From: Dehalococcoidia bacterium
GTDB taxonomy: Bacteria > Chloroflexota > Dehalococcoidia > Plut-88900
Reading direction: 5' to 3'
NCBI GenBank assembly: GCA_965197645.1
Contig: OZ240219.1
Location: 2,976,001 to 3,040,000 of the forward strand
Length of the DNA: 64,000 nucleotides
The position numbers and the translations under genes were made by a program. Shown in pieces: positions 1 through 64,000 of this stretch. Below the pieces are notes generated by a model. The model saw only the letters and a program-made list of their open reading frames with translations. It ran no database searches and was not told the origin of the DNA. Position 1 is the stretch's first letter. Each line of letters opens with the position of its first letter.

Positions 1-20
1 GCCGCCAGACCGGTGCCCGA

Positions 21-177
21 CGTGTGAAGCGATCAACTCCAACGCGCCGGACGGGTGTCCAGCGGGCGAAGGACCAACGTCAACTCCGACCCGCAGGACT
101 GGACCGATGACGAAGGACCAGCGTCAACTCCGTCGTTTCGGCCCGCGCTGCCTGCGAAGGACCAACGTCAAACTCCG
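21..177 (-). repeat. Tandem 22-bp repeats at 44-bp period (67-88, 111-132, 155-177; degenerate copy 21-44), each a bulged hairpin on the - strand
   Basis: CGAAGGACCARCGTCAACTCCG x3 (third copy has one extra A) with unrelated 22-bp spacers; - strand folds CGGAG-UU-GAC-GYUG-GUC-CUUCG. Confidence 0.85.
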
Positions 178-241
178 CTTCAGCAGCATTCCCTCTTGGG
201 CGACTCTACGGTCATGCCCGTGCAACAGGGAGATCACGCAC

Positions 242-296
242 CCAGGTTTCTATGGCGGGAAACCTTGGAGAAAGCCAAACAGTGAAGTCATTATCG
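242..296 (-). promoter_or_regulatory. Conserved non-coding motif with hairpin (also at 59356-59409)
   Basis: 45 of 55 positions identical by manual alignment to 59356-59409, at the same position relative to the paralogous gene; ends in GTTTC-CCGCCMTA-GAAAC hairpin. Confidence 0.75.
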
Positions 297-400
297 CCGC
301 GCACGACGCCGCAGGAGAGGGCCGGGGAGACCCCTTTGCCGAAACTGCCGCCAAATCGTTCACAAAAGTTAAGTGGCAACCCCGTGACCGCCCGGACCGG

Positions 401-1243
401 CTACCGCCACAACAGTCCGAAGGTCAGCCTGTTCAGAAGCTCCCGCTTTCTGATCGCTCTCCGCGTGTCGAAGAGCGCGGTCCTGCGCCAGTTGGTCTGC
501 CCGCTCCGGTCCAGGCCCCGGAGGGGCTGCCTCTCCGGGGGAAGCGTCATGTCGTGCTCTTCCAGCAGCGTCAGCTCCACCGCCAGCAAACGCTCCTTCT
601 CCGCCAGCCACGCAAGGCCCCTGCCCTTCGTGGAGTGCGAGTCCTTCAGCCCCCGCCACTCGACGACCAGCGGAAAGGCGTCGCCGAACACATCCTCGTC
701 GTCGGGGGCGGGCTCCCGCGTCACGAGGTCGGGGTACTCCCGCCGCACCCTCGGCCTCGACGCAGGCTTCCTTCCGCCGTCCGGCGCACCGGCCTCCGAT
801 TTGCCTGAACCTGGCTGGGAGCGACCGGCGCCGGCATGACCGGCCCCGGTCCCCTGGGCGCCGCTTCGCTTCAACGCTCCGACCTCGCCCTCGACGGCTG
901 CCATCCTCCTGCGCATCTCCTTGCCCAGCGCATCCACCTCGCTCGCCAGCCCCTTCTCCAGCGCCTCGACCCGTTCCTCCAGCCCGTCGTTGCGCTCCCG
1001 CTGACGTGCCGCCGCCGACCCGACGCCCTCCTGCAACGCACGCTCCAGGGCGTGACGCGCCCGCCGGGACAGCCTCCCGGTCGTCGCGCAGGTGGTCACC
1101 GTCCGGCGGTCCAACTCCAGCACCCGCGCCGCGCCTCTGTAGCCCTTCTCCCGCACCAGCTCTTGCAGCAGCGTCATCAGCCGCATGTGGTGCACGTTCT
1201 CAACGTCCCTGCTCTTCTCGATGCCGTGCTCCGTGGTTCTCAT
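401..1243 (-). CDS. Conserved ICE protein, N-terminal HTH, coiled coil, Arg-rich C-terminus
   Basis: 280 aa; RGAARVLELDRRTV HTH-like segment; paralog at 58455-59261 sharing TLPPE.QPLRG..R.GQ.NWRR.AL.DTR; divergent from transfer operon. Confidence 0.8.
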   Translation of the reverse strand: MRTTEHGIEKSRDVENVHHMRLMTLLQELVREKGYRGAARVLELDRRTVTTCATTGRLSRRARHALERALQEGVGSAAARQRERNDGLEERVEALEKGLASEVDALGKEMRRRMAAVEGEVGALKRSGAQGTGAGHAGAGRSQPGSGKSEAGAPDGGRKPASRPRVRREYPDLVTREPAPDDEDVFGDAFPLVVEWRGLKDSHSTKGRGLAWLAEKERLLAVELTLLEEHDMTLPPERQPLRGLDRSGQTNWRRTALFDTRRAIRKRELLNRLTFGLLWR

Positions 1244-1569
1244 GGCTCATCCTCCTTCTCTCGACTCGACCATAGCCTCCGACCCCGATTCCGGCCCCTC
1301 TCGACCCCTGGCACAAAAACGGGCCACTCAGGAAGGGGCTATGTGCCAGAGGCCCCGCACCGGCAGTGGCACAAAATGGCCCGTTCCAAGCTGCGACTTG
1401 TACCAGCCGACCGGAACCGGCCCTTTCACAAAGTGTTCACTGATTACCCTCCTGTAGGGGGGGAGATGTACCACCTTCCAGGTAGGAAATGACCCACATG
1501 CACCACTCCGGTACAAAACCCCTTTTCCTGTACACCCCCAATACTGCACGAAAAAGTCCGCCGAAAAGA

Positions 1570-1652
1570 GGGCCTATAAGGGCGCGCAAGTGTGCGCGGC
1601 CCTATGGGGGAGCGGGCCTATGAGGGCGCGCAGAAGTGCGCGGCCCTATGGG
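1570..1652. repeat. Two 39-bp direct repeats (44-bp period), each with internal dyad, upstream of transfer operon
   Basis: GGGCCTATRAGGGCGCGCA...GTGCGCGGCCCTATGGG at 1570-1608 and 1614-1652, followed by a T-run. Confidence 0.85.
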
Positions 1653-1740
1653 AGGTCTTTTTTCTCGTTTGATTTGTTCACACTCTTTTGCGAATGCCGC
1701 GGTCCGGTGAACCGCAGCAAACCGCAGGGAGGTGAACGAG

Positions 1741-2355
1741 TTGGCGCTGAAATCGAAACTCCGGTCCGCAAGGCGGCTACTGCCCCTGGCATCCGCGCTG
1801 CTACTGGCGGCGCTCCTGGCAATCCCCGCTAGCAACTTAGCCCTGGCTCAAGCCCCGCCCGGCGACGAGCTGACCCTCGTCAACGCCGAGCGGGATTTCG
1901 TCGAGCGCAAGGGCGGCGGCGAGTTCGTGGCACGCCCCGTCTTCGACCGCAAGATCGTGGACCTCTTCTACGCGGTGAGGGACGCCGACACCGGCGACTG
2001 GATCACCGCCATGTACCGGGTCAAGGGGGGCGAGAAGAAGCGGAGCGACGGCTGGGAATACTCCTGGGAGTACCCCGACCTGGACGAGCACCCCGAGCTC
2101 GACCGCGACCGGGCCTACCTGCTGGTGATGCTGGCCGTGGCCGAGGACGGCAAGCGGGGCGAGTTCTACGCCGTCGTCCCCATCCACCAGCCGGGCCGCA
2201 TCTGGGACAAGATTCTGAGCGCACTCAACCCGGCGCGGTGGGCGAGGGCCTTCGCCGGCTGGGTGATCGAGGGAGTCCACGGGACCCTCTGCGGCGTGGT
2301 GGAGAGAGCGAGCGGCGAGGACGCCGACAACTGCCGGAGGGAGTCCGGCAGATGA
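1741..2355 (+). CDS. Secreted/membrane-anchored ICE transfer-region protein
   Basis: TTG start after GGAGG; signal peptide (LALA-Q); paralog 57446-58069 (GTLCGVVE..SG.DADNCR). Confidence 0.8.
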   Translation: MALKSKLRSARRLLPLASALLLAALLAIPASNLALAQAPPGDELTLVNAERDFVERKGGGEFVARPVFDRKIVDLFYAVRDADTGDWITAMYRVKGGEKKRSDGWEYSWEYPDLDEHPELDRDRAYLLVMLAVAEDGKRGEFYAVVPIHQPGRIWDKILSALNPARWARAFAGWVIEGVHGTLCGVVERASGEDADNCRRESGR

Positions 2356-58236: not shown

Positions 58237-58439
58237 GTTCCCAAAAGGGAAGTGAGGGGCACACTCAAGGCTAAAACAGGGGAAGTTGAGCCCCCTAGAG
58301 GACGGGAAGAGAGAACACTTTTTCTGAAGTCCCCATTCCGGACCGGGTGGACAGCGCCAGGCACGACGGTTCCCAAAAGGGAACCGGGCAAACCAGACGA
58401 AACTTCCCATTCCGTGTCGTGGAAGTTCCCAAAAGGGAA
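58237..58439. promoter_or_regulatory. Three palindromic operator-like boxes in the divergent intergenic region
   Basis: GTTCCCAAAAGGGAA at 58237, 58369 and 58425; the last lies next to the RBS of the HTH gene. Confidence 0.8.
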
Positions 58440-58454
58440 GTGAGGGAGGTACGA

Positions 58455-59261
58455 ATGAAAGAGGAGCATGCAGCGACGGCGGACAACCTGCGTCATCTGC
58501 GGTTGAGTGGACTTCTGCGGGACCTGGTCCGCCAGGAGGGCCGCATGGAGGCCGCCGAGCTGCTGGGGGTCAATTACAAGACCCTCGCCAGGGCCATCGA
58601 GTCGGGTAGGCTCACGCCCCGGCTGTCCGACGCCCTGGAACGGCTGGTGCTGGAAGGTGAAGGTTCTGCTGCGGCCCGGCAGGATCAGCGGATCGAGGCC
58701 CTGGAGGGACGGGTGGAGTCGCTGGCGGAGGACCTGCGGGGCGGCCTCGAGGAGCTCAGAGCAGTCGTCCAGGAGAAGGACGCGGCCCCACGGGACGAAA
58801 GCACGGGAGAAGAGGCGCAGGTGGAGGAGCGACCTGCGCCTGTGGAAAGGTCCCGGGCAGGTGAGGAGCCGCAGGAACCCGGGCCGTTGAAGTGGGCTCG
58901 TCACCGCCGGCTGGATCCCCTGGTTGTCCCCGAGGAGCCGGAGCCCGACGACGAGGAGGTCTATGGCCCGGCGTGGCCGGTCATAGAGGAGTGGCGCAGG
59001 CTCAGGAGGGGCCATCCGCACCGGGGCGGGAGCCTGTCGTGGCTGGTGACGGAGGAGCGCATCCTGGGGTTGGAGCTGGCGATCCTGGAGGAGCACGGGT
59101 TGACGTTGCCCCCGGAGGTGCAGCCGCTGCGGGGCTTCGGGCGCAACGGCCAGATCAACTGGCGAAGGAAGGCCCTCTACGACACTCGGAACGCCCGGGC
59201 CCGGCGGCAACTGCTGCGGTGGGTGCGCCGGATGGTGACCCTGGGGTTGTGGTGGAGGTAG
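58455..59261 (+). CDS. Conserved ICE HTH/coiled-coil/Arg-rich protein
   Basis: Paralog of 401-1243; MEAAELLGVNYKTL HTH. Confidence 0.8.
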   Translation: MKEEHAATADNLRHLRLSGLLRDLVRQEGRMEAAELLGVNYKTLARAIESGRLTPRLSDALERLVLEGEGSAAARQDQRIEALEGRVESLAEDLRGGLEELRAVVQEKDAAPRDESTGEEAQVEERPAPVERSRAGEEPQEPGPLKWARHRRLDPLVVPEEPEPDDEEVYGPAWPVIEEWRRLRRGHPHRGGSLSWLVTEERILGLELAILEEHGLTLPPEVQPLRGFGRNGQINWRRKALYDTRNARARRQLLRWVRRMVTLGLWWR

Positions 59262-59355
59262 CCGCTTACGGCGAGCGCTTAGGGTTTCGATAGACACGAT
59301 CAAACACTTCGCTTTGGTGAGCCACGGACCCCTGGACATTGGTACAACCGTTCTA

Positions 59356-59540
59356 CGATAATGAACCCACTGTCAGGCTTTGCCAGAGTTTCCCGCCCTA
59401 GAAACCTGGAGGGTCCCATCCCCGACCCGGCAAGGACCGCTTAGGATCGAGCACTGCTCTCCGAACGGTCCACCAACAGGGACAAGCGCATCCGGCTGCG
59501 ATAAACGGTGGAGGGGTCGAGCAATGCTCCCCCAACGCTG
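59356..59540 (+). ncRNA. Candidate structured leader RNA: conserved 54-nt motif plus two bulged hairpins
   Basis: Motif shared with 242-296; GGA-UC-GAGC-ACU-GCUC-UCC (59444-59462) and GGGG-UC-GAGC-AAU-GCUC-CCCC (59513-59533). Confidence 0.5.
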
Positions 59541-59847
59541 CTTTGAAAGCCGGGAGGACCCTGGGAGAAGTGTGCCCTACGCCTCGGCGTGAACGGCCAT
59601 TCTCATCGAAGTGCGCCATGCGCCACGACTTTCCCCCAAGGCCCAGCCCAGCTCGAAGAGTCGGCCGCCGTTACGCCACGAGGCTGTTACGGCCAACCCC
59701 GAGCCGAGCCCCATCTTCTTCAACCTCGCTCCCCCTCCACGTCAGGCATCCGACCGTGGCGGGAGTGCGTCCACTTCGTCAATAGAACCCACAGCCCAAG
59801 CCTGCGCCACGGATGCCGGCACGGGCAGCAACAGAAAGGAGGCGTCG

Positions 59848-60120
59848 ATGCACGCCAGGAAAGAAGTTCCAAGGATCGTAGCCGCAGTCGCCGGGACCGG
59901 CAGGTTCCTGCGGCGGCGAAAGCGGGCGGTGATTGCGCTGCTGGTGACAGGGCCCCTTCTGCTGACCGGCGACCTGGATCTCTTCGCCCTGAACCTGGTC
60001 GGGCTGGGCTTAGGGGCGCTCCTGCTCCGGCAGATGACACTGTCCACGGCCGCGAGACCGGCGACTACGAAACGACAGACGGCGGAAACAACGGTACAAA
60101 CAGATAGGAGGACACGATGA
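59848..60120 (+). CDS. Small membrane protein
   Basis: AAGGAGG RBS, two short hydrophobic segments; first gene of a coupled operon. Confidence 0.6.
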   Translation: MHARKEVPRIVAAVAGTGRFLRRRKRAVIALLVTGPLLLTGDLDLFALNLVGLGLGALLLRQMTLSTAARPATTKRQTAETTVQTDRRTR

Positions 60121-60596
60121 CGACGGCAACGGCAACACTGGGCAACCGGACGCTGGCAGGGGCCCGGCCCAGCCTGGAACAGCTGGTCGACCGGCTGATA
60201 GCGGTCCTGTTCAGGGACGAGCCGGAGACGGCGGAGGCCACGGCAGAGCCAGCCCGGAGCGTGGCCCGCAGCGTCCATGAAGCGCGGCGGCTGCGGCAGG
60301 CGGGGGAGATCGACTCCGCACTGGCGGTCTTCGGCGGCATGGACATGGAGAAGGCGACACAGGAGGAGGCCCGCTGGGCCTTCTCCGAGTGGATGCAGCT
60401 TGTAAGGAGGCGGCGGTTCGGAAACCGGGACGCCCTGGTCTACAGCCAGGGAACGGGCAGGGCCGCCGCGCTGGTTCCCACGTCCGATGGCGGCACGCTG
60501 GAGGTCGCCGCTGTCCTGGGGATGCGCTGGCCAACCGGCAAGCTGGTCTCGCGGCGGAGCCTGCGGGGACTAAAGCCCCTGTGCGGAGGTGGATGA
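60117..60596 (+). CDS. Hypothetical protein
   Basis: AGGAGG RBS; ATGA overlaps on both sides. Confidence 0.7.
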   Translation: MTTATATLGNRTLAGARPSLEQLVDRLIAVLFRDEPETAEATAEPARSVARSVHEARRLRQAGEIDSALAVFGGMDMEKATQEEARWAFSEWMQLVRRRRFGNRDALVYSQGTGRAAALVPTSDGGTLEVAAVLGMRWPTGKLVSRRSLRGLKPLCGGG

Positions 60597-61633
60597 TGGT
60601 CACCGCCAACGTGGACATCCCCACCCTGAAGGCCCGGCACCCGCTGGGAGACACGGTGGAGGCCGCCGGGGTGAGGCTGAGGGGAAGGGGCAGGGTCCGC
60701 CAGGGCGTCTGCCCCTTCCACGACGAGGGCGAGGGCAGCTTCACTGTCTACGCCGACTCGGAGCGGTTCTACTGCTTCGGGTGCGGTGAAGGGGGAGACG
60801 TGCTGGATTTTATCCAGAAGTCCGAAGACCTCACGCTGTCGGAGGCGATCCGGCATCTTGACGAGGACGCTTACCCCAGCGTCTCCCACCCGGTTCCGGC
60901 ACAGCGTCGTACGGCAACTGCTCTCCCAGTCAGGGACCCGACACTCCTGACGGCGGCATCCCGCTTCTACGCCGGTTGTCTCCGGCGTTCCCCGGAAGCG
61001 CGGGAGTACCTGGCATTGCGGGGCGTCGGCCCGATAGCTGCAAGCCGCCTGGGTCTCGGCTTCTCACCGGGCGGCGGGTTGCGGCAGGCCCTGGAGTCGG
61101 CCGGCTTCTCCGAGAGGCGCATCCGGGACTCGGGGCTGTTCACGGACCGGGGTGCGGAGCGGTTCGCAGGAATGGTCGTCGTACCCGACATCTCCGGCGG
61201 CTTGGTTCGCTGGCTCGCTGGTCGGGCCATCGATCCTGGCGCGAGGCCCCGGTTCCAGGCCCTTCCGGGCCCCAAGCCGGTGCTTGGGCTTGGGCGACTT
61301 GGCCCCGCACCACCCTGGACGGTCCTGACCGAGGGGGTCTTCGACTGGATTGCGCTTGCCCAGTGGGGCCTCCCCGCCTGCGCCGCCCTGGGCACCCAGG
61401 GCGTTGAGCGCATCGCCTCGGCCCTCCGGGGCTGTCCCCACATCTTCCTCGCCTTCGACAACGACGATGCAGGCCTTGAGGTCACAGAGCGGCTTGCGTC
61501 CTTGCTTGGAAGGCGCTTCGCCGCCGTCACCCTTCCCCAGGGCGTCGGCGACGTGGCCGAGCTTGCCACCCACCCCACCGGGAGCGCCGCTTTCCTCCGC
61601 CTGCTCTCCCAGGCCGCCCGCGCTGCCCGCTAG
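60593..61633 (+). CDS. DnaG-like primase (CHC2 zinc finger + TOPRIM)
   Basis: CPFHDE...FYCFGCG..GD, EGVFD, AFDNDDAG. Confidence 0.9.
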   Translation: MMVTANVDIPTLKARHPLGDTVEAAGVRLRGRGRVRQGVCPFHDEGEGSFTVYADSERFYCFGCGEGGDVLDFIQKSEDLTLSEAIRHLDEDAYPSVSHPVPAQRRTATALPVRDPTLLTAASRFYAGCLRRSPEAREYLALRGVGPIAASRLGLGFSPGGGLRQALESAGFSERRIRDSGLFTDRGAERFAGMVVVPDISGGLVRWLAGRAIDPGARPRFQALPGPKPVLGLGRLGPAPPWTVLTEGVFDWIALAQWGLPACAALGTQGVERIASALRGCPHIFLAFDNDDAGLEVTERLASLLGRRFAAVTLPQGVGDVAELATHPTGSAAFLRLLSQAARAAR

Positions 61634-61814
61634 CGGCTCCCCGCCGCTCTCCAGCGGGCTTCGTTTCCCCCGCTTTCTCCCACTCCCCATTCTCACCCGC
61701 CTGGGAGGAGCTATGCCCATTTCATGACGGGCTTCGCCCGCGCACGGCTTCCCCTAGAAGAATCCGCCCACCGACCATTGGCCACAGGAACTACATCACG
61801 GAAGGAGACGCAAC

Positions 61815-62696
61815 ATGCCGAACAAGAACGGAAGCAACAACGGAAACGGCGTCCACGAGGACACCGCCATGGCCACCCGGAACGGAAACGGCCACAAGCC
61901 TGAGGCCGAAATCACCGGCGGGCACGACCTTCTCTGGGACGGTCTCTCGCCCGCCGTCACCAGGGCGCTGGAACAGCCCCTCGACCCCGTACTGGTCTCC
62001 CAGCGCAAGGGACGCGCCGGCAGGGTCTTCGACTACCTGGAAGGCCACGTCGTCATCGACCAGGCCAACCGGGTGTTCGGATACGGTGGCTGGGGCTACG
62101 AGATGGTCGGAGAGGTGGCCCTACGCCGGATCGAGACCGTCGACGTGAAAACGGGAGAGGTGAAGGTGTCCTACGGTTACAGCGCTCCCGTCCGGGTCAC
62201 CGTCCCCGGCGCCCCGCCGCGCACCGACACCGGCTTCCATGCCGTTACCGACGAGACCGCTGACGGGCATGAGACTGCCCTGAAGGGAGCTGTCACCGAC
62301 GGCATGAAGCGCGCCCTGCGCAGCTTTGGGGACCGGTTCGGCAACGGCCTGTACGGCGACCGGCAGTCCCAGGAGGCGAGAAGCCGAGGGACCGACGCCG
62401 GGCGGACGGGCGGAAAGGGTGGCGGCACGCCCCGCCCTCAGCGCGTCTCATCTCCGGCCAAGGGGACGTTCAGCCCCGTGCCGGGCAACGACCTCGACGA
62501 GACCCATGTGCGGTACCTGCGCAAGCGGATCTTGGAGCTGGGCGTCGAGCAGGGCTTCGAAAAGGGGCAGGTGCGGGCCGCCGTTCGCAACAGGACGGGC
62601 CGGGACCTAGAGGACCTGGCGGCGGCGGATCTGACACCCCTGGTCGAGGGCGCAACCCGGAGGCTCCACCAGATGCAGCAGGGAGATGCCGCATGA
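61815..62696 (+). CDS. Rad52/Rad22-family single-strand annealing protein
   Basis: R.GRAG..FDYLEGH.VI..ANRVFGYGGW...A.KGAVTDGMKRALRSFG..FGNGLY. Confidence 0.9.
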   Translation: MPNKNGSNNGNGVHEDTAMATRNGNGHKPEAEITGGHDLLWDGLSPAVTRALEQPLDPVLVSQRKGRAGRVFDYLEGHVVIDQANRVFGYGGWGYEMVGEVALRRIETVDVKTGEVKVSYGYSAPVRVTVPGAPPRTDTGFHAVTDETADGHETALKGAVTDGMKRALRSFGDRFGNGLYGDRQSQEARSRGTDAGRTGGKGGGTPRPQRVSSPAKGTFSPVPGNDLDETHVRYLRKRILELGVEQGFEKGQVRAAVRNRTGRDLEDLAAADLTPLVEGATRRLHQMQQGDAA

Positions 62697-62763
62697 GCCA
62701 GGGGGCCATGACAACGAGCGGGGGCGTCTCCGCTCTCCATTTACGGGACAAGGAGGAGAAGAA

Positions 62764-63108
62764 ATGGCAACCACAACCGCGATCTACACACCCTGGGGTT
62801 GGACCCGGGACATTGAGGAGTTGGCCGATGGGGTCTTGAGAGTTTCCACGCCCAGCCACGGAGGGTTGAAGCTCAGCGGCGAGCGGTGGAACTCCCTGCC
62901 CGCCGAGGTCCGGGACGGTATGTACACACCGACCTTCGCCGAGGAGGACTGCGAGGAGTCCATCGTCAGGACACTGCTGGGCCTGGGGGATGACCGGGAG
63001 AGGGAGCTTGCCCTCAGGGTGGCGGGCTACTTTGACCGCTACGCCCCGGCGCTGCCCCACCTGCGGGCTGCCGCCCGGGGGCCGCACTACCACGTCATCG
63101 GCTACTAG
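62764..63108 (+). CDS. DUF7007-like protein, possibly truncated by a premature TAG
   Basis: TPWG...LADG...VSTPSHGG..LS...EEDC; frame continues with protein-like sequence after TAG 63106-63108. Confidence 0.65.
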   Translation: MATTTAIYTPWGWTRDIEELADGVLRVSTPSHGGLKLSGERWNSLPAEVRDGMYTPTFAEEDCEESIVRTLLGLGDDRERELALRVAGYFDRYAPALPHLRAAARGPHYHVIGY

Positions 63109-63254
63109 GGCGGCTACGGGACCTGCTCCTTCGGGCACTTCGATACCAGGGAGGAGGCGGAAGCCTTCGCCGGCGACGGTGGGAACCTGCGGGACCACGG
63201 ACGGCTCGAGGCCGTCGAGTGCGACAGGAATCACGACGGGAAGGGGGAAGGGCC

Positions 63255-63665
63255 ATGAGCACGACGACAAGGGCCAGGCCCCGCAGCCTTCCCAGCACCA
63301 CCACCAAGCTGCAGACCGAGTACGGGAACCTGTACGTCACCGTCTCTACCGACGAAGAGGGTCGGCCCTTCGAGGTCTTCGGCTGGCTGGGAAAGGGCGG
63401 CAGCTTCCAGCACGGGGTCACCGAGCTGGCCTGCCGGTTGATCTCCCTGCACCTGCGCAGGGGTACCCCGCTCGAGGAGGTGATCGACCAGATCGCCGGC
63501 ATCCAGGAGATGCAGCCCTTCTTCAACAGGATGGCCGACGGCGCCAGCGTGGCCGTCCTGGGACTGGGAGATGGCATTGCTCACATCCTGAAGGGTTACC
63601 TAAAGGATGGGGAAGACGGGGAAGTGGTGCAATCGACAGAAGCGGCCGAATCGAAGGTCGCATGA
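63255..63665 (+). CDS. Stand-alone TSCPD domain (class II RNR C-terminal-like)
   Basis: RP..L...T.K..T..GNLYVTV..D..G.PFEVF...GK.G......E...RLISL.LR.G...EEVIDQI.GI. Confidence 0.8.
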   Translation: MSTTTRARPRSLPSTTTKLQTEYGNLYVTVSTDEEGRPFEVFGWLGKGGSFQHGVTELACRLISLHLRRGTPLEEVIDQIAGIQEMQPFFNRMADGASVAVLGLGDGIAHILKGYLKDGEDGEVVQSTEAAESKVA

Positions 63666-63756
63666 CCGGCACGGCTCAAAGAAGCGTGGATCGAGGCGGG
63701 TTGCTCTCCAAGGAGACGGCTCCGCTTTCATCTACAGGAGATCAGGAGGTAAAAAA

Positions 63757-64000
63757 ATGACGACTGAGACCATCGACAGGACAGGGGTCTTCTCCCGTCC
63801 TGCGGCACGGTTCGACGCCGGCGGCAACCTGGAGGTGCGGGCATCGGCGGCCCTGGGCTGCCGCCGCGCCCTCTGGTACGCGGCGACGGGACACACGCCC
63901 ACCAGATCCCCCAGCGAGGAGTCCCGCATGGCGATGGAAGCGGGCAACGCCCTGGAGCCGGTGGTGGTCCGGGCGATGGAGCGGACCGGTTGGAAGGTCG
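63757..64000 (+). CDS. Cas4/RecB-like PD-(D/E)xK exonuclease, N-terminal part (runs off window)
   Basis: AGGAGG RBS; RAS..GCRRALWY.......M..G...E. Confidence 0.6.
   Translation, partial: MTTETIDRTGVFSRPAARFDAGGNLEVRASAALGCRRALWYAATGHTPTRSPSEESRMAMEAGNALEPVVVRAMERTGWKV

Follow-up and report, generated by a model that had tools for sequence, protein, structure and literature searches.

A strand-specific module of tandem bulged hairpins, conserved with an adjacent protein gene, as a candidate leader RNA in conjugative elements of Dehalococcoidia

The leader RNAs whose control of conjugative elements has been worked out to date are from Firmicutes (conAn, Tn916). In HIV Tat-TAR and lambda N-boxB, proteins with arginine-rich motifs read bulged or looped hairpins and control transcription elongation, and in TAR the motif that binds arginine is a pyrimidine bulge immediately followed by G-C and A-U pairs. 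CsrB and RsmZ are titrating RNAs with repeated near-identical hairpins, while sopC of F consists of arrayed 43-bp repeats that each contain an inverted repeat. Here we describe a noncoding module of about 600 nt, built around tandem bulged hairpins, in a 64,000-nt stretch (the window) of the genome of a Dehalococcoidia bacterium (contig OZ240219.1, genome positions 2976001–3040000); the host genome is one contig of 3.21 Mb. The module lies on the minus strand at the left edge of the window, behind the gene of a 280-aa protein, in a conjugative element called ICE-A, and a diverged counterpart is found in a second element of the window, ICE-B.

The closest described system is conAn of plasmid pLS20, for which PMC8191782 gives the order gene 28 (conAn1), a 383-bp intergenic region with the cis-acting conAn2 RNA, genes 29–30 and the terminator Ter30; in that account some ConAn1 proteins have an N-terminal helix-turn-helix (HTH), and all but one of the conAn matches are in Firmicutes. 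The locus described here is laid out like conAn as presented there, with a protein gene, then a long structured element downstream on the same strand and ahead of an operon, and genes and a strong terminator behind it (PMC8191782). It differs in that there is no detectable relation in protein (no PF17362) or RNA sequence, and in that the module heads a replication and establishment operon diverging from type IV secretion system (T4SS) genes, whereas conAn stands at the start of a conjugation operon. The RNA here would also be about twice as long and is built of tandem bulged hairpins, and the host belongs to the Chloroflexota.

A preliminary description of the window, made from its letters, had reported bulged-hairpin repeats on the minus strand, and in this respect it held up throughout. 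Three 22-nt direct repeats lie at 67–88, 111–132 and 155–176, with spacings of 44 and 44 nt, and their 17-nt core pattern has 3 matches against 0.27 expected, a count reached in 2 of 100 shuffles. The minimum-energy RNA fold of the minus strand of window 1–400 yields precisely the hairpins drawn earlier (z = −2.26), whereas the plus strand folds no better than shuffles (z = +0.99). Each repeat forms a hairpin with the lower stem CGGAG/CUUCG (one G.U pair), a 2–3-nt 5′ U bulge, the upper stem GAC/GUC and a 4-nt loop. The flanks of the repeats differ and still pair (G/C; GA/UC plus C-G; GCGGG/CCCGC), and a degenerate fourth copy at 26–42 reads U GGAG UUGAUCG CUUC A. The array had been taken to end at base 21, which proved wrong, since two further units of the form GGAG-UUGAUCG-CUUC lie to the left of the window at genome 2975944 and 2975985. 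The three repeats are thus the end of an ICE-A array of 6–7 units that runs off the window's left edge, and the part inside the window covers 1–176 on the minus strand, with one GGAG-UUGAUCG-CUUC unit (the fourth copy) and the three repeats as bulged GGAG-UU(U)-GAC-loop-GUC-CUUC units.

Units are 41–47 nt long, and each has in its spacer another hairpin rich in G.U (type GCUGGAC-N4-GUCCGGC), 3 of whose 7 pairs are G.U in some units. The distance between the GGAG and CUUC halves ranges from 7 to 13 nt among unit types, and the upper stem is missing in many units, namely those of the GGAG-UUGAUCG-CUUC and GGAG-UGAUAAGCC-CUUC types; across units, GGRG-UY-GA and the closing CYYC are retained. Sites of the CsrA type, with GGA in a loop, were considered and rejected, as GGA sits in the stem here. 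Units with a 2–3-nt 5′ pyrimidine bulge followed by G-C and A-U pairs (type 2), next to a protein with a predicted Arg-rich end helix, may be likened to Tat-TAR and N-boxB. These pairs above the bulge occur in the GGAG-UU-GAC...GUC-CUUC units and in the UC-GAGC hairpins of ICE-B, and not in the UUGAUCG and UGAUAAGCC units. The module differs from Tat-TAR and N-boxB in having arrays of 3–7 hairpins rather than single ones, in its many units without an upper stem and in the lack of homology, and we treat the analogy with TAR as a resemblance only.

The repeats sit within a conserved noncoding block of about 600 nt (genome 2975690–2976300). This block occurs four times in this genome, where its copies can be aligned end to end while their flanks are far more divergent, and it was matched in 9 of the 12 genomes of the family (this genome included), many times in several of them. 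Read in the RNA sense, the module consists of GATAAT, a 5′ element, a hairpin of variable length, the array of 3–7 units, a 3′ domain and tandem copies of about 100 nt. The ICE-A module begins about 100 nt past the stop codon of the protein gene, on the same strand, and the point at which conservation starts is the −10-like hexamer GATAAT (290–295, minus strand). The 5′ domain (177–289, minus strand) holds, at 245–278, the nearly invariant 5′ element, TTGG-N6-CCAA followed by GGTTTC-N8-GAAACC, together with a GGGC/GCCC stem at the base of a hairpin whose length differs widely (0, ~14 or ~35 nt); such hairpins of variable length are inserted within conserved closing stems. At its 3′ side the module has 1–4 tandem copies of about 100 nt, each ending in GCUGCGUCUUC. 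A search of Rfam at E up to 10, a check proposed in the preliminary description and run over window 1–2000 and over 700–2000 of a locus numbering used around the ICE-A copy (L001, in which 1379–1883 corresponds to window −121 to 383), returned only chance-level rows far under the gathering scores and therefore no match.

To widen the sample, species genomes were searched with the protein, and from at least 490 confirmed stretches the best 80 were taken, all of them Dehalococcoidia or Chloroflexota metagenome assemblies; these are the 80 loci below, which with ICE-A and ICE-B make 82 regions. The ~100-nt repeats of the 3′ side lie 560–960 nt past the stop codon in the 80 loci (L001 ~1190–1290 and leftwards in ICE-A), and in each a 12-bp hairpin with G.U pairs is combined with a stem whose end reads GCUGCGUCUUC(UUU); they may serve as weak terminators or as additional sites for protein. 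A 13-codon open reading frame (ORF) over the invariant 5′ element (window 290–252, minus strand; M-x-x-LFGFLQGF-x-P), from the ATG in GATAATG to the TAG in CATAGAAAC, is probably no leader peptide, because conservation is at the nucleotide level, with third codon positions as invariant as the others, and because 1-nt indels break the ORF in several copies.

The module folds better on one strand than on the other. With RNA parameters, the fold energy of the 301-nt array is −161 kcal/mol (z = −5.15, equalled by 0 of 100 shuffles), and the whole 611-nt module has z = −2.84 in sense, compared with −0.07 in antisense. Sense is more stable than antisense by 25–69 kcal/mol in 14 of 16 copies, the order being reversed in G7_b and G9, and the alifold consensus of a MAFFT alignment of the 16 copies gives −129.2 in sense and −80.6 in antisense. 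This consensus fold contains 120 pairs, which are standard in 96.0% of cells, whereas in a control the partners slid by 1–3 columns pair in just 35–49%. Cells changed on both sides number 37 as against 15.2 in column shuffles, a value reached by 0 of 500 shuffles, and a 13-pair helix that encloses an optional inserted hairpin has compensatory changes in 6 pairs. G.U cells outnumber A.C cells by 294 to 29 in the sense prediction and by 15 to 5 for the 51 pairs predicted on both strands.

Because a predicted structure favours its own strand, we added structure-independent, strand-blind scans. Uninterrupted 6-bp hairpins in the arrays of the 16 copies number 58 in sense and 8 in antisense, and the 58 sense stems contain 135 G.U pairs, a mean of more than 2 per 6 bp. 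Over the 750 nt behind the protein gene in the 80 loci, perfect 6-bp hairpins number 706 in sense versus 364 in antisense, with sense higher in 77 of 80, while the same scan of the protein's own coding sequence, as a control, gives 422 and 405. For bulged hairpins of the described layout (4-bp stem, 1–3-nt 5′ bulge, 3–4-bp stem, 3–5-nt loop) the counts are 793 and 248. The larger alignments point the same way. One pair of the 5′ half (66 distinct sequences; 99.3% of cells paired) flips between C-G and G-C (33/27), and others are found in three states (GU 24, AU 20, GC 19; GU 41, GC 23, AU 2). The 3′ domain (64 sequences) folds at −66.8 in sense versus −22.5 in antisense, and 16 of its 58 pairs show at least two Watson-Crick types. 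The preliminary description had proposed covariation in homologs as a check, and covariation is present there, as compensatory changes and as three-state pairs passing through G.U. These observations argue that selection acts on one strand, that of the protein gene. The structure is single-stranded, and a duplex binding site cannot explain it.

It is accordingly very unlikely that the repeats are double-stranded DNA sites to which the adjacent HTH protein binds, either as iterons of a replication origin or as a sopC-like centromere, with the hairpins as a by-product of imperfect palindromes. The arrays are, by their size of ~3–7 units across copies and their period of 41–47 bp, tandem direct repeats of the iteron or sopC type; the period is regular and close to four helical turns, an HTH protein gene adjoins them, and, as in the 43-bp array of sopC, repeats of ~43–44 bp with inverted repeats stand on a mobile element beside the gene of a DNA-binding-type protein. 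The GGTTTC-N8-GAAACC element, which is invariant and does not covary, could well be a DNA operator, and the invariant 5′ palindromes could have this role even if the rest is RNA. However, the strong asymmetry of pairing between strands would be invisible to a protein on duplex DNA, and in none of the three scans (58/8, 706/364, 793/248) does the array behave as a symmetric duplex repeat. Pairing is kept on one strand by changes that go through G.U, the spacing of the half-sites is variable (7–13 nt), as is the number of units, and there is no AT-rich unwinding stretch (by eye). Among the neighbours tested no Rep, ParA or ParB family scored above threshold, the only trace being a sub-threshold ParB-HTH line for the multi-HTH protein.

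Covariation alone cannot separate RNA from single-stranded DNA (ssDNA), and an ssDNA element for conjugative transfer or rolling-circle replication would also be strand-specific. Such an element could be an sso- or ssi-type origin or priming site or part of an oriT, with hairpins in the displaced or transferred strand. The structure indeed lies in a conjugative element beside primase, Rad52-like and helicase genes, and sso sites, too, are strand-specific folded noncoding elements upstream of early or replication genes in conjugative elements. The same likeness holds for Frpo and ssi as described in PMC11541004, which documents ssDNA promoters and priming sites in conjugative leading regions. 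With DNA parameters, however, the array is no better than shuffles (sense z = −0.90, equalled or bettered by 19 of 100 shuffles; antisense z = +0.26), in contrast to the z of −5.15 with RNA parameters, and the energy model therefore favours RNA over DNA. The sense-strand pairs depend heavily on G.U, the folds contain no long hairpin of the Frpo kind that mimics a −35/−10 duplex, and an element of the Frpo type would lie on the template strand, where these pairs would become A.C mismatches. Contigs from RNA libraries also cover the region (see below). We therefore regard the ssDNA alternative as improbable, although it fares better than duplex sites: the strand-biased hairpins, the changes passing through G.U and the difference between the RNA and DNA fold scores argue against iterons on double-stranded DNA and weaken the ssDNA reading.

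The second element of the window repeats this arrangement in diverged form. ICE-B encodes a homologue of the protein (58347–59261, plus strand; 304 aa, 43% identical), followed by a noncoding region (59350–59848, plus strand) with GATAAT at 59357–59362, the shared 5′ element at 59356–59409, UC-bulged hairpins at 59444–59462 and 59513–59533 and a divergent 3′ part. The two hairpins, GGA-UC-GAGC-ACU-GCUC-UCC and GGGG-UC-GAGC-AAU-GCUC-CCCC, are present where the preliminary description had placed them, and both form in the minimum-energy fold. Its statement that the ICE-B sequence is unrelated was overstated, as ICE-A and ICE-B have in common the 5′ element (82% identity over ~55 nt) and the hairpin core GGRG-UY-GA, and their hairpins look like diverged versions of one motif, GGRG-UY-GA...CYYC. 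Five relatives of the ICE-B variant occur in the family. The bulge and upper stem are invariant in all six sequences, while the third lower-stem pair of hairpin 2 is G-C in two, G.U in three and A-U in one, and the outer stem round hairpin 1 changes from GACCG/CGGUC to GGCCG/CGGCC (both by eye). The order of parts is that of ICE-A, namely protein gene, GATAAT, 5′ element, hairpins, small membrane ORF and replication genes, the last two belonging to a downstream operon (59849–63760, plus strand) that comprises a small membrane-protein ORF, a 159-aa ORF beginning MTTAT, a DnaG-type primase (60389–61633), a Rad52-like protein (61815–62696) and a further ORF.

The structure was said at the outset to lie on the strand of the upstream gene and to be conserved with it, and strand scans, folds and synteny agree on this. 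In 14 of 17 family copies a homologue of the protein directly precedes the module on its strand; one further copy is at a contig end. The 5′ element (GTTTC..GAAAC) was found in 71 of the 80 loci, mostly ~136 nt past the stop codon, the 3′ element in 68 of the 80, and at least three GGRGU(1-3)GR motifs in 72 of the 82 regions. Next on the same strand comes the gene of a small Cys-rich protein whose C-terminus is a membrane helix (no family; only a remnant of the gene in ICE-A), and behind it stands a strong intrinsic terminator, a GC-rich stem of 12 bp in our own scan or 13–14 pairs in a terminator-prediction tool, followed by CTTCTTTGC. A sense terminator with a stem of at least 9 bp is present in 62 of the 80 loci, the ATGACNACNGC start comes after it in 62 of 62, and the distance is 58–74 nt in 60 of these; the stem covaries across loci, and antisense terminator matches total 3 over all 80. 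The 65-nt gap from the terminator to the start codon contains a second small hairpin and a ribosome-binding site, with no sigma-70-like −10.

What follows the terminator varies among copies. A four-HTH XRE-type protein is found there in ICE-A and in a second copy, a helicase in the copy at 1.36 Mb, and a DnaG-type primase plus a Rad52-like protein in the copy at 3.2 Mb and in ICE-B, while the T4SS genes (TrbL and a VirB4/TraG-like P-loop protein) are read from the other strand, divergently from the protein gene. The earlier term "replication operon" therefore suits ICE-B (primase, Rad52-like) and two other copies in this genome, and does not suit ICE-A, where the sole downstream gene is the four-HTH XRE-type regulator; the cadherin/Calx-beta and histidine-kinase genes beyond it are on the other strand and outside the operon. 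The gene past the terminator always begins with MTTAT and has an N-terminal part of ~160 aa with no known family (L039 18166–19272, minus; L040 8143–8646, minus; L042 10828–12384, plus; window 60117–60596, plus). In two copies this part is a gene of its own, in one it is joined to a DnaG-type primase, and in ICE-A it continues into the four-HTH XRE protein. In one subgroup of loci (L043–L122) the ribosome-binding site is inside the small hairpin GCAC-UUAGGAG-GUGC, ~20 nt before the MTTAT start, which suggests an extra layer of translational control.

The protein gene of ICE-A (401–1243, minus strand) encodes 280 aa, with an HTH-like N-terminus, a long coiled-coil helix, a disordered linker and a conserved C-terminal domain predicted to end in an Arg-rich helix (NWRRTALFDTRRAIRKRELLNRL). 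Its AlphaFold model is all-helical (pLDDT 71.8) and shows an HTH-like bundle (residues 8–72), a 50-residue helix (77–126), the disordered linker (127–171), helices at 182–202 and 210–228, and a terminal helix (246–279) that bears the conserved NWRRTALxDTRRAxxxRE. On this model a DNA-binding N-terminus combined with an Arg-rich C-terminus is plausible. A Pfam scan at E up to 1 gave two chance-level families only, with PF17362 not among them; NCBIfam and a PDB sequence profile yielded no relative, and PLSDB plasmids no match at protein or DNA level. The ESM Atlas pointed to XRE-type HTH clusters (score 0.80), which we take as a lead only. Unnamed homologues form at least 1583 clusters at an E of 0.001 or better.

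The reading that we rank first, tentatively, is that the module is a cis-acting leader RNA governing terminator read-through into the replication genes. It takes this place because the layout, with gene, RNA, small gene, terminator and genes without a visible promoter, is that of pLS20 conAn. The structured RNA of ~550–700 nt would be made from the minus strand of the window, either together with the 401–1243 gene or from a promoter at the conserved GATAAT. It would head the operon running away from the T4SS genes, with the small Cys-rich membrane protein, the terminator, the MTTAT gene and then a regulator, primase, Rad52-like protein or helicase. The RNA would work in cis on the polymerase that is transcribing it and would probably carry a protein on its hairpin array, the most obvious candidate being the co-encoded HTH, coiled-coil and Arg-rich protein; this complex would enable transcription to run past the conserved terminator and reach the genes for replication and establishment. 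Antitermination-type control, as first proposed, gains indirect support in this way, because a conserved strong terminator lies downstream with no visible promoter behind it and the order of gene and RNA is like that of conAn. A more specific version is that the module is a tandem counterpart of Tat-TAR or N-boxB, in which the regulator oligomerises on 3–7 bulged hairpins, makes polymerase terminator-resistant and so gates the replication and establishment genes of an undescribed family of Chloroflexota conjugative elements, with the protein and RNA families both new. This we consider unlikely as it stands.

Sponge metatranscriptomes of one study bear on whether the module is transcribed. Contigs from four runs cover L001 1379–1883, among them one of 236 nt (7 differences) and one of 116 nt (no difference), and a 157-nt contig (L001 1728–1883, 2 mismatches) bridges GATAAT and reaches within 18 nt of the protein's stop codon. 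These contigs support the RNA reading weakly. In a separate observation, ~34 nt around the hairpin CCCCGUA-UCAAG-UACGGGG (L001 1083–1119; genome 2975583–2975619) have a summed depth of 336–503 in all four sponge RNA runs. The contigs matching this stretch diverge from the locus on both sides, and it is probably a short motif common to abundant RNA of other organisms.

If the module is RNA, it need not act by read-through. A stand-alone noncoding RNA could start at a GATAAT promoter and end at the GCUGCGUCUUC elements or the strong terminator, acting in trans as a protein scaffold or sponge with 3–7 sites, or it could be a long 5′ untranslated region controlling the small membrane-protein gene. 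Conservation begins exactly at the −10-like hexamer, which in 53 distinct upstream regions is GATAAT in 29, AATAAT in 17, GATACT in 5, GACAAT in 1 and CATACT in 1. A promoter scan matches this spot in two of the four copies in the genome (not in ICE-A). The end of the module is a conserved stem plus pyrimidine tract, repeated 1–4 times, and near-identical repeated hairpins are a hallmark of the titrating RNAs CsrB and RsmZ. In ICE-A the small Cys-rich membrane gene is reduced to a 9-codon remnant, MHVNEVHRR (L001 ~910–940, minus strand), yet the ribosome-binding site, the module and the terminator are kept (by eye). On the other hand, the module invariably has the orientation of the protein gene and the downstream operon and lies right between the two, the 157-nt contig spans the hexamer rather than starting at it, and the GCUGCGUCUUC elements are non-canonical as terminators and were missed by the terminator scan. 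A stand-alone RNA is thus somewhat unlikely in our view, though it deserves more weight than the DNA alternatives.

A number of results weigh against a cis-acting read-through leader. With regard to structure, the bias of the alifold prediction is real, since the antisense prediction gathers G.U cells too; just 2 of 45 pairs in the 5′ half are changed on both sides among the 66 sequences, many pairs never vary because sequence conservation is high, and the ICE-B region as a single sequence is no better than shuffles (z = −0.71 in sense, −1.53 in antisense). With regard to transcription, no conserved −35 was found before GATAAT in the 53 upstream regions (mean score 2.0 of 6, equal to control offsets). 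The metatranscriptome contigs come from a single study and carry no strand information, and DNA carry-over would favour the module equally, given that it has several copies and that its flanks are less conserved; it is for these reasons that their support is weak. None of them lies on the protein gene body or on the 3′ domain (L001 1190–1379), which is no evidence of absence. As to the protein, it has no similarity to ConAn1 or any known antiterminator. Foldseek against the PDB gave weak Cro/C-protein HTH rows only (E above 1), and a wide VIA-align search with residues 208–280 gave generic helical hairpins only (Z below 8). Lastly, each of the two copies scanned in full has one strong terminator only per operon, and processive antitermination is therefore not required; it also counts against this reading that the module stands before the replication operon instead of the transfer operon.

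Two further features of the genome were recorded. A weak terminator-like hairpin lies at 375–392 (L001 1892–1875, minus strand), just 3′ of the stop codon of the protein gene, and is not conserved in other copies. Related protein-plus-RNA units occur at six places in the 3.2-Mb genome (1365370, 1954384, 2542997, 2975690, 3035340 and 3207476), with the ICE-A type at four of them and the ICE-B type at two, and a relative (G008) has at least eight; the six copies suggest that the chromosome holds several related conjugative elements or their remains.

No published description of the element was found in the literature on conjugative elements of sponge-associated Dehalococcoidia or on arginine-rich-motif antitermination, nor, by title and abstract, among the Chloroflexota matches listed. 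Leader-RNA control of conjugative-element operons is a known kind of regulation, and what appear to be new are this RNA, its architecture of bulged hairpins in tandem, the protein that partners it and the phylum. Whatever its function, an RNA of 600 nt in which helices covary and bulged hairpins stand in tandem is well suited to selective 2′-hydroxyl acylation analysed by primer extension (SHAPE), electrophoretic mobility shift assays (EMSA) and in vitro transcription with recombinant parts, for which the host is not needed. In mobile elements of uncultivated sponge-associated Dehalococcoidia, with several copies per genome, an unrelated and far more repetitive RNA stands with an unnamed protein family (the clusters counted above) in the position equivalent to that of the Firmicutes leaders. 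If the read-through reading is true, it would give a new Rfam RNA family, a new family of RNA-binding or antitermination proteins and a handle on the timing of element replication after transfer.

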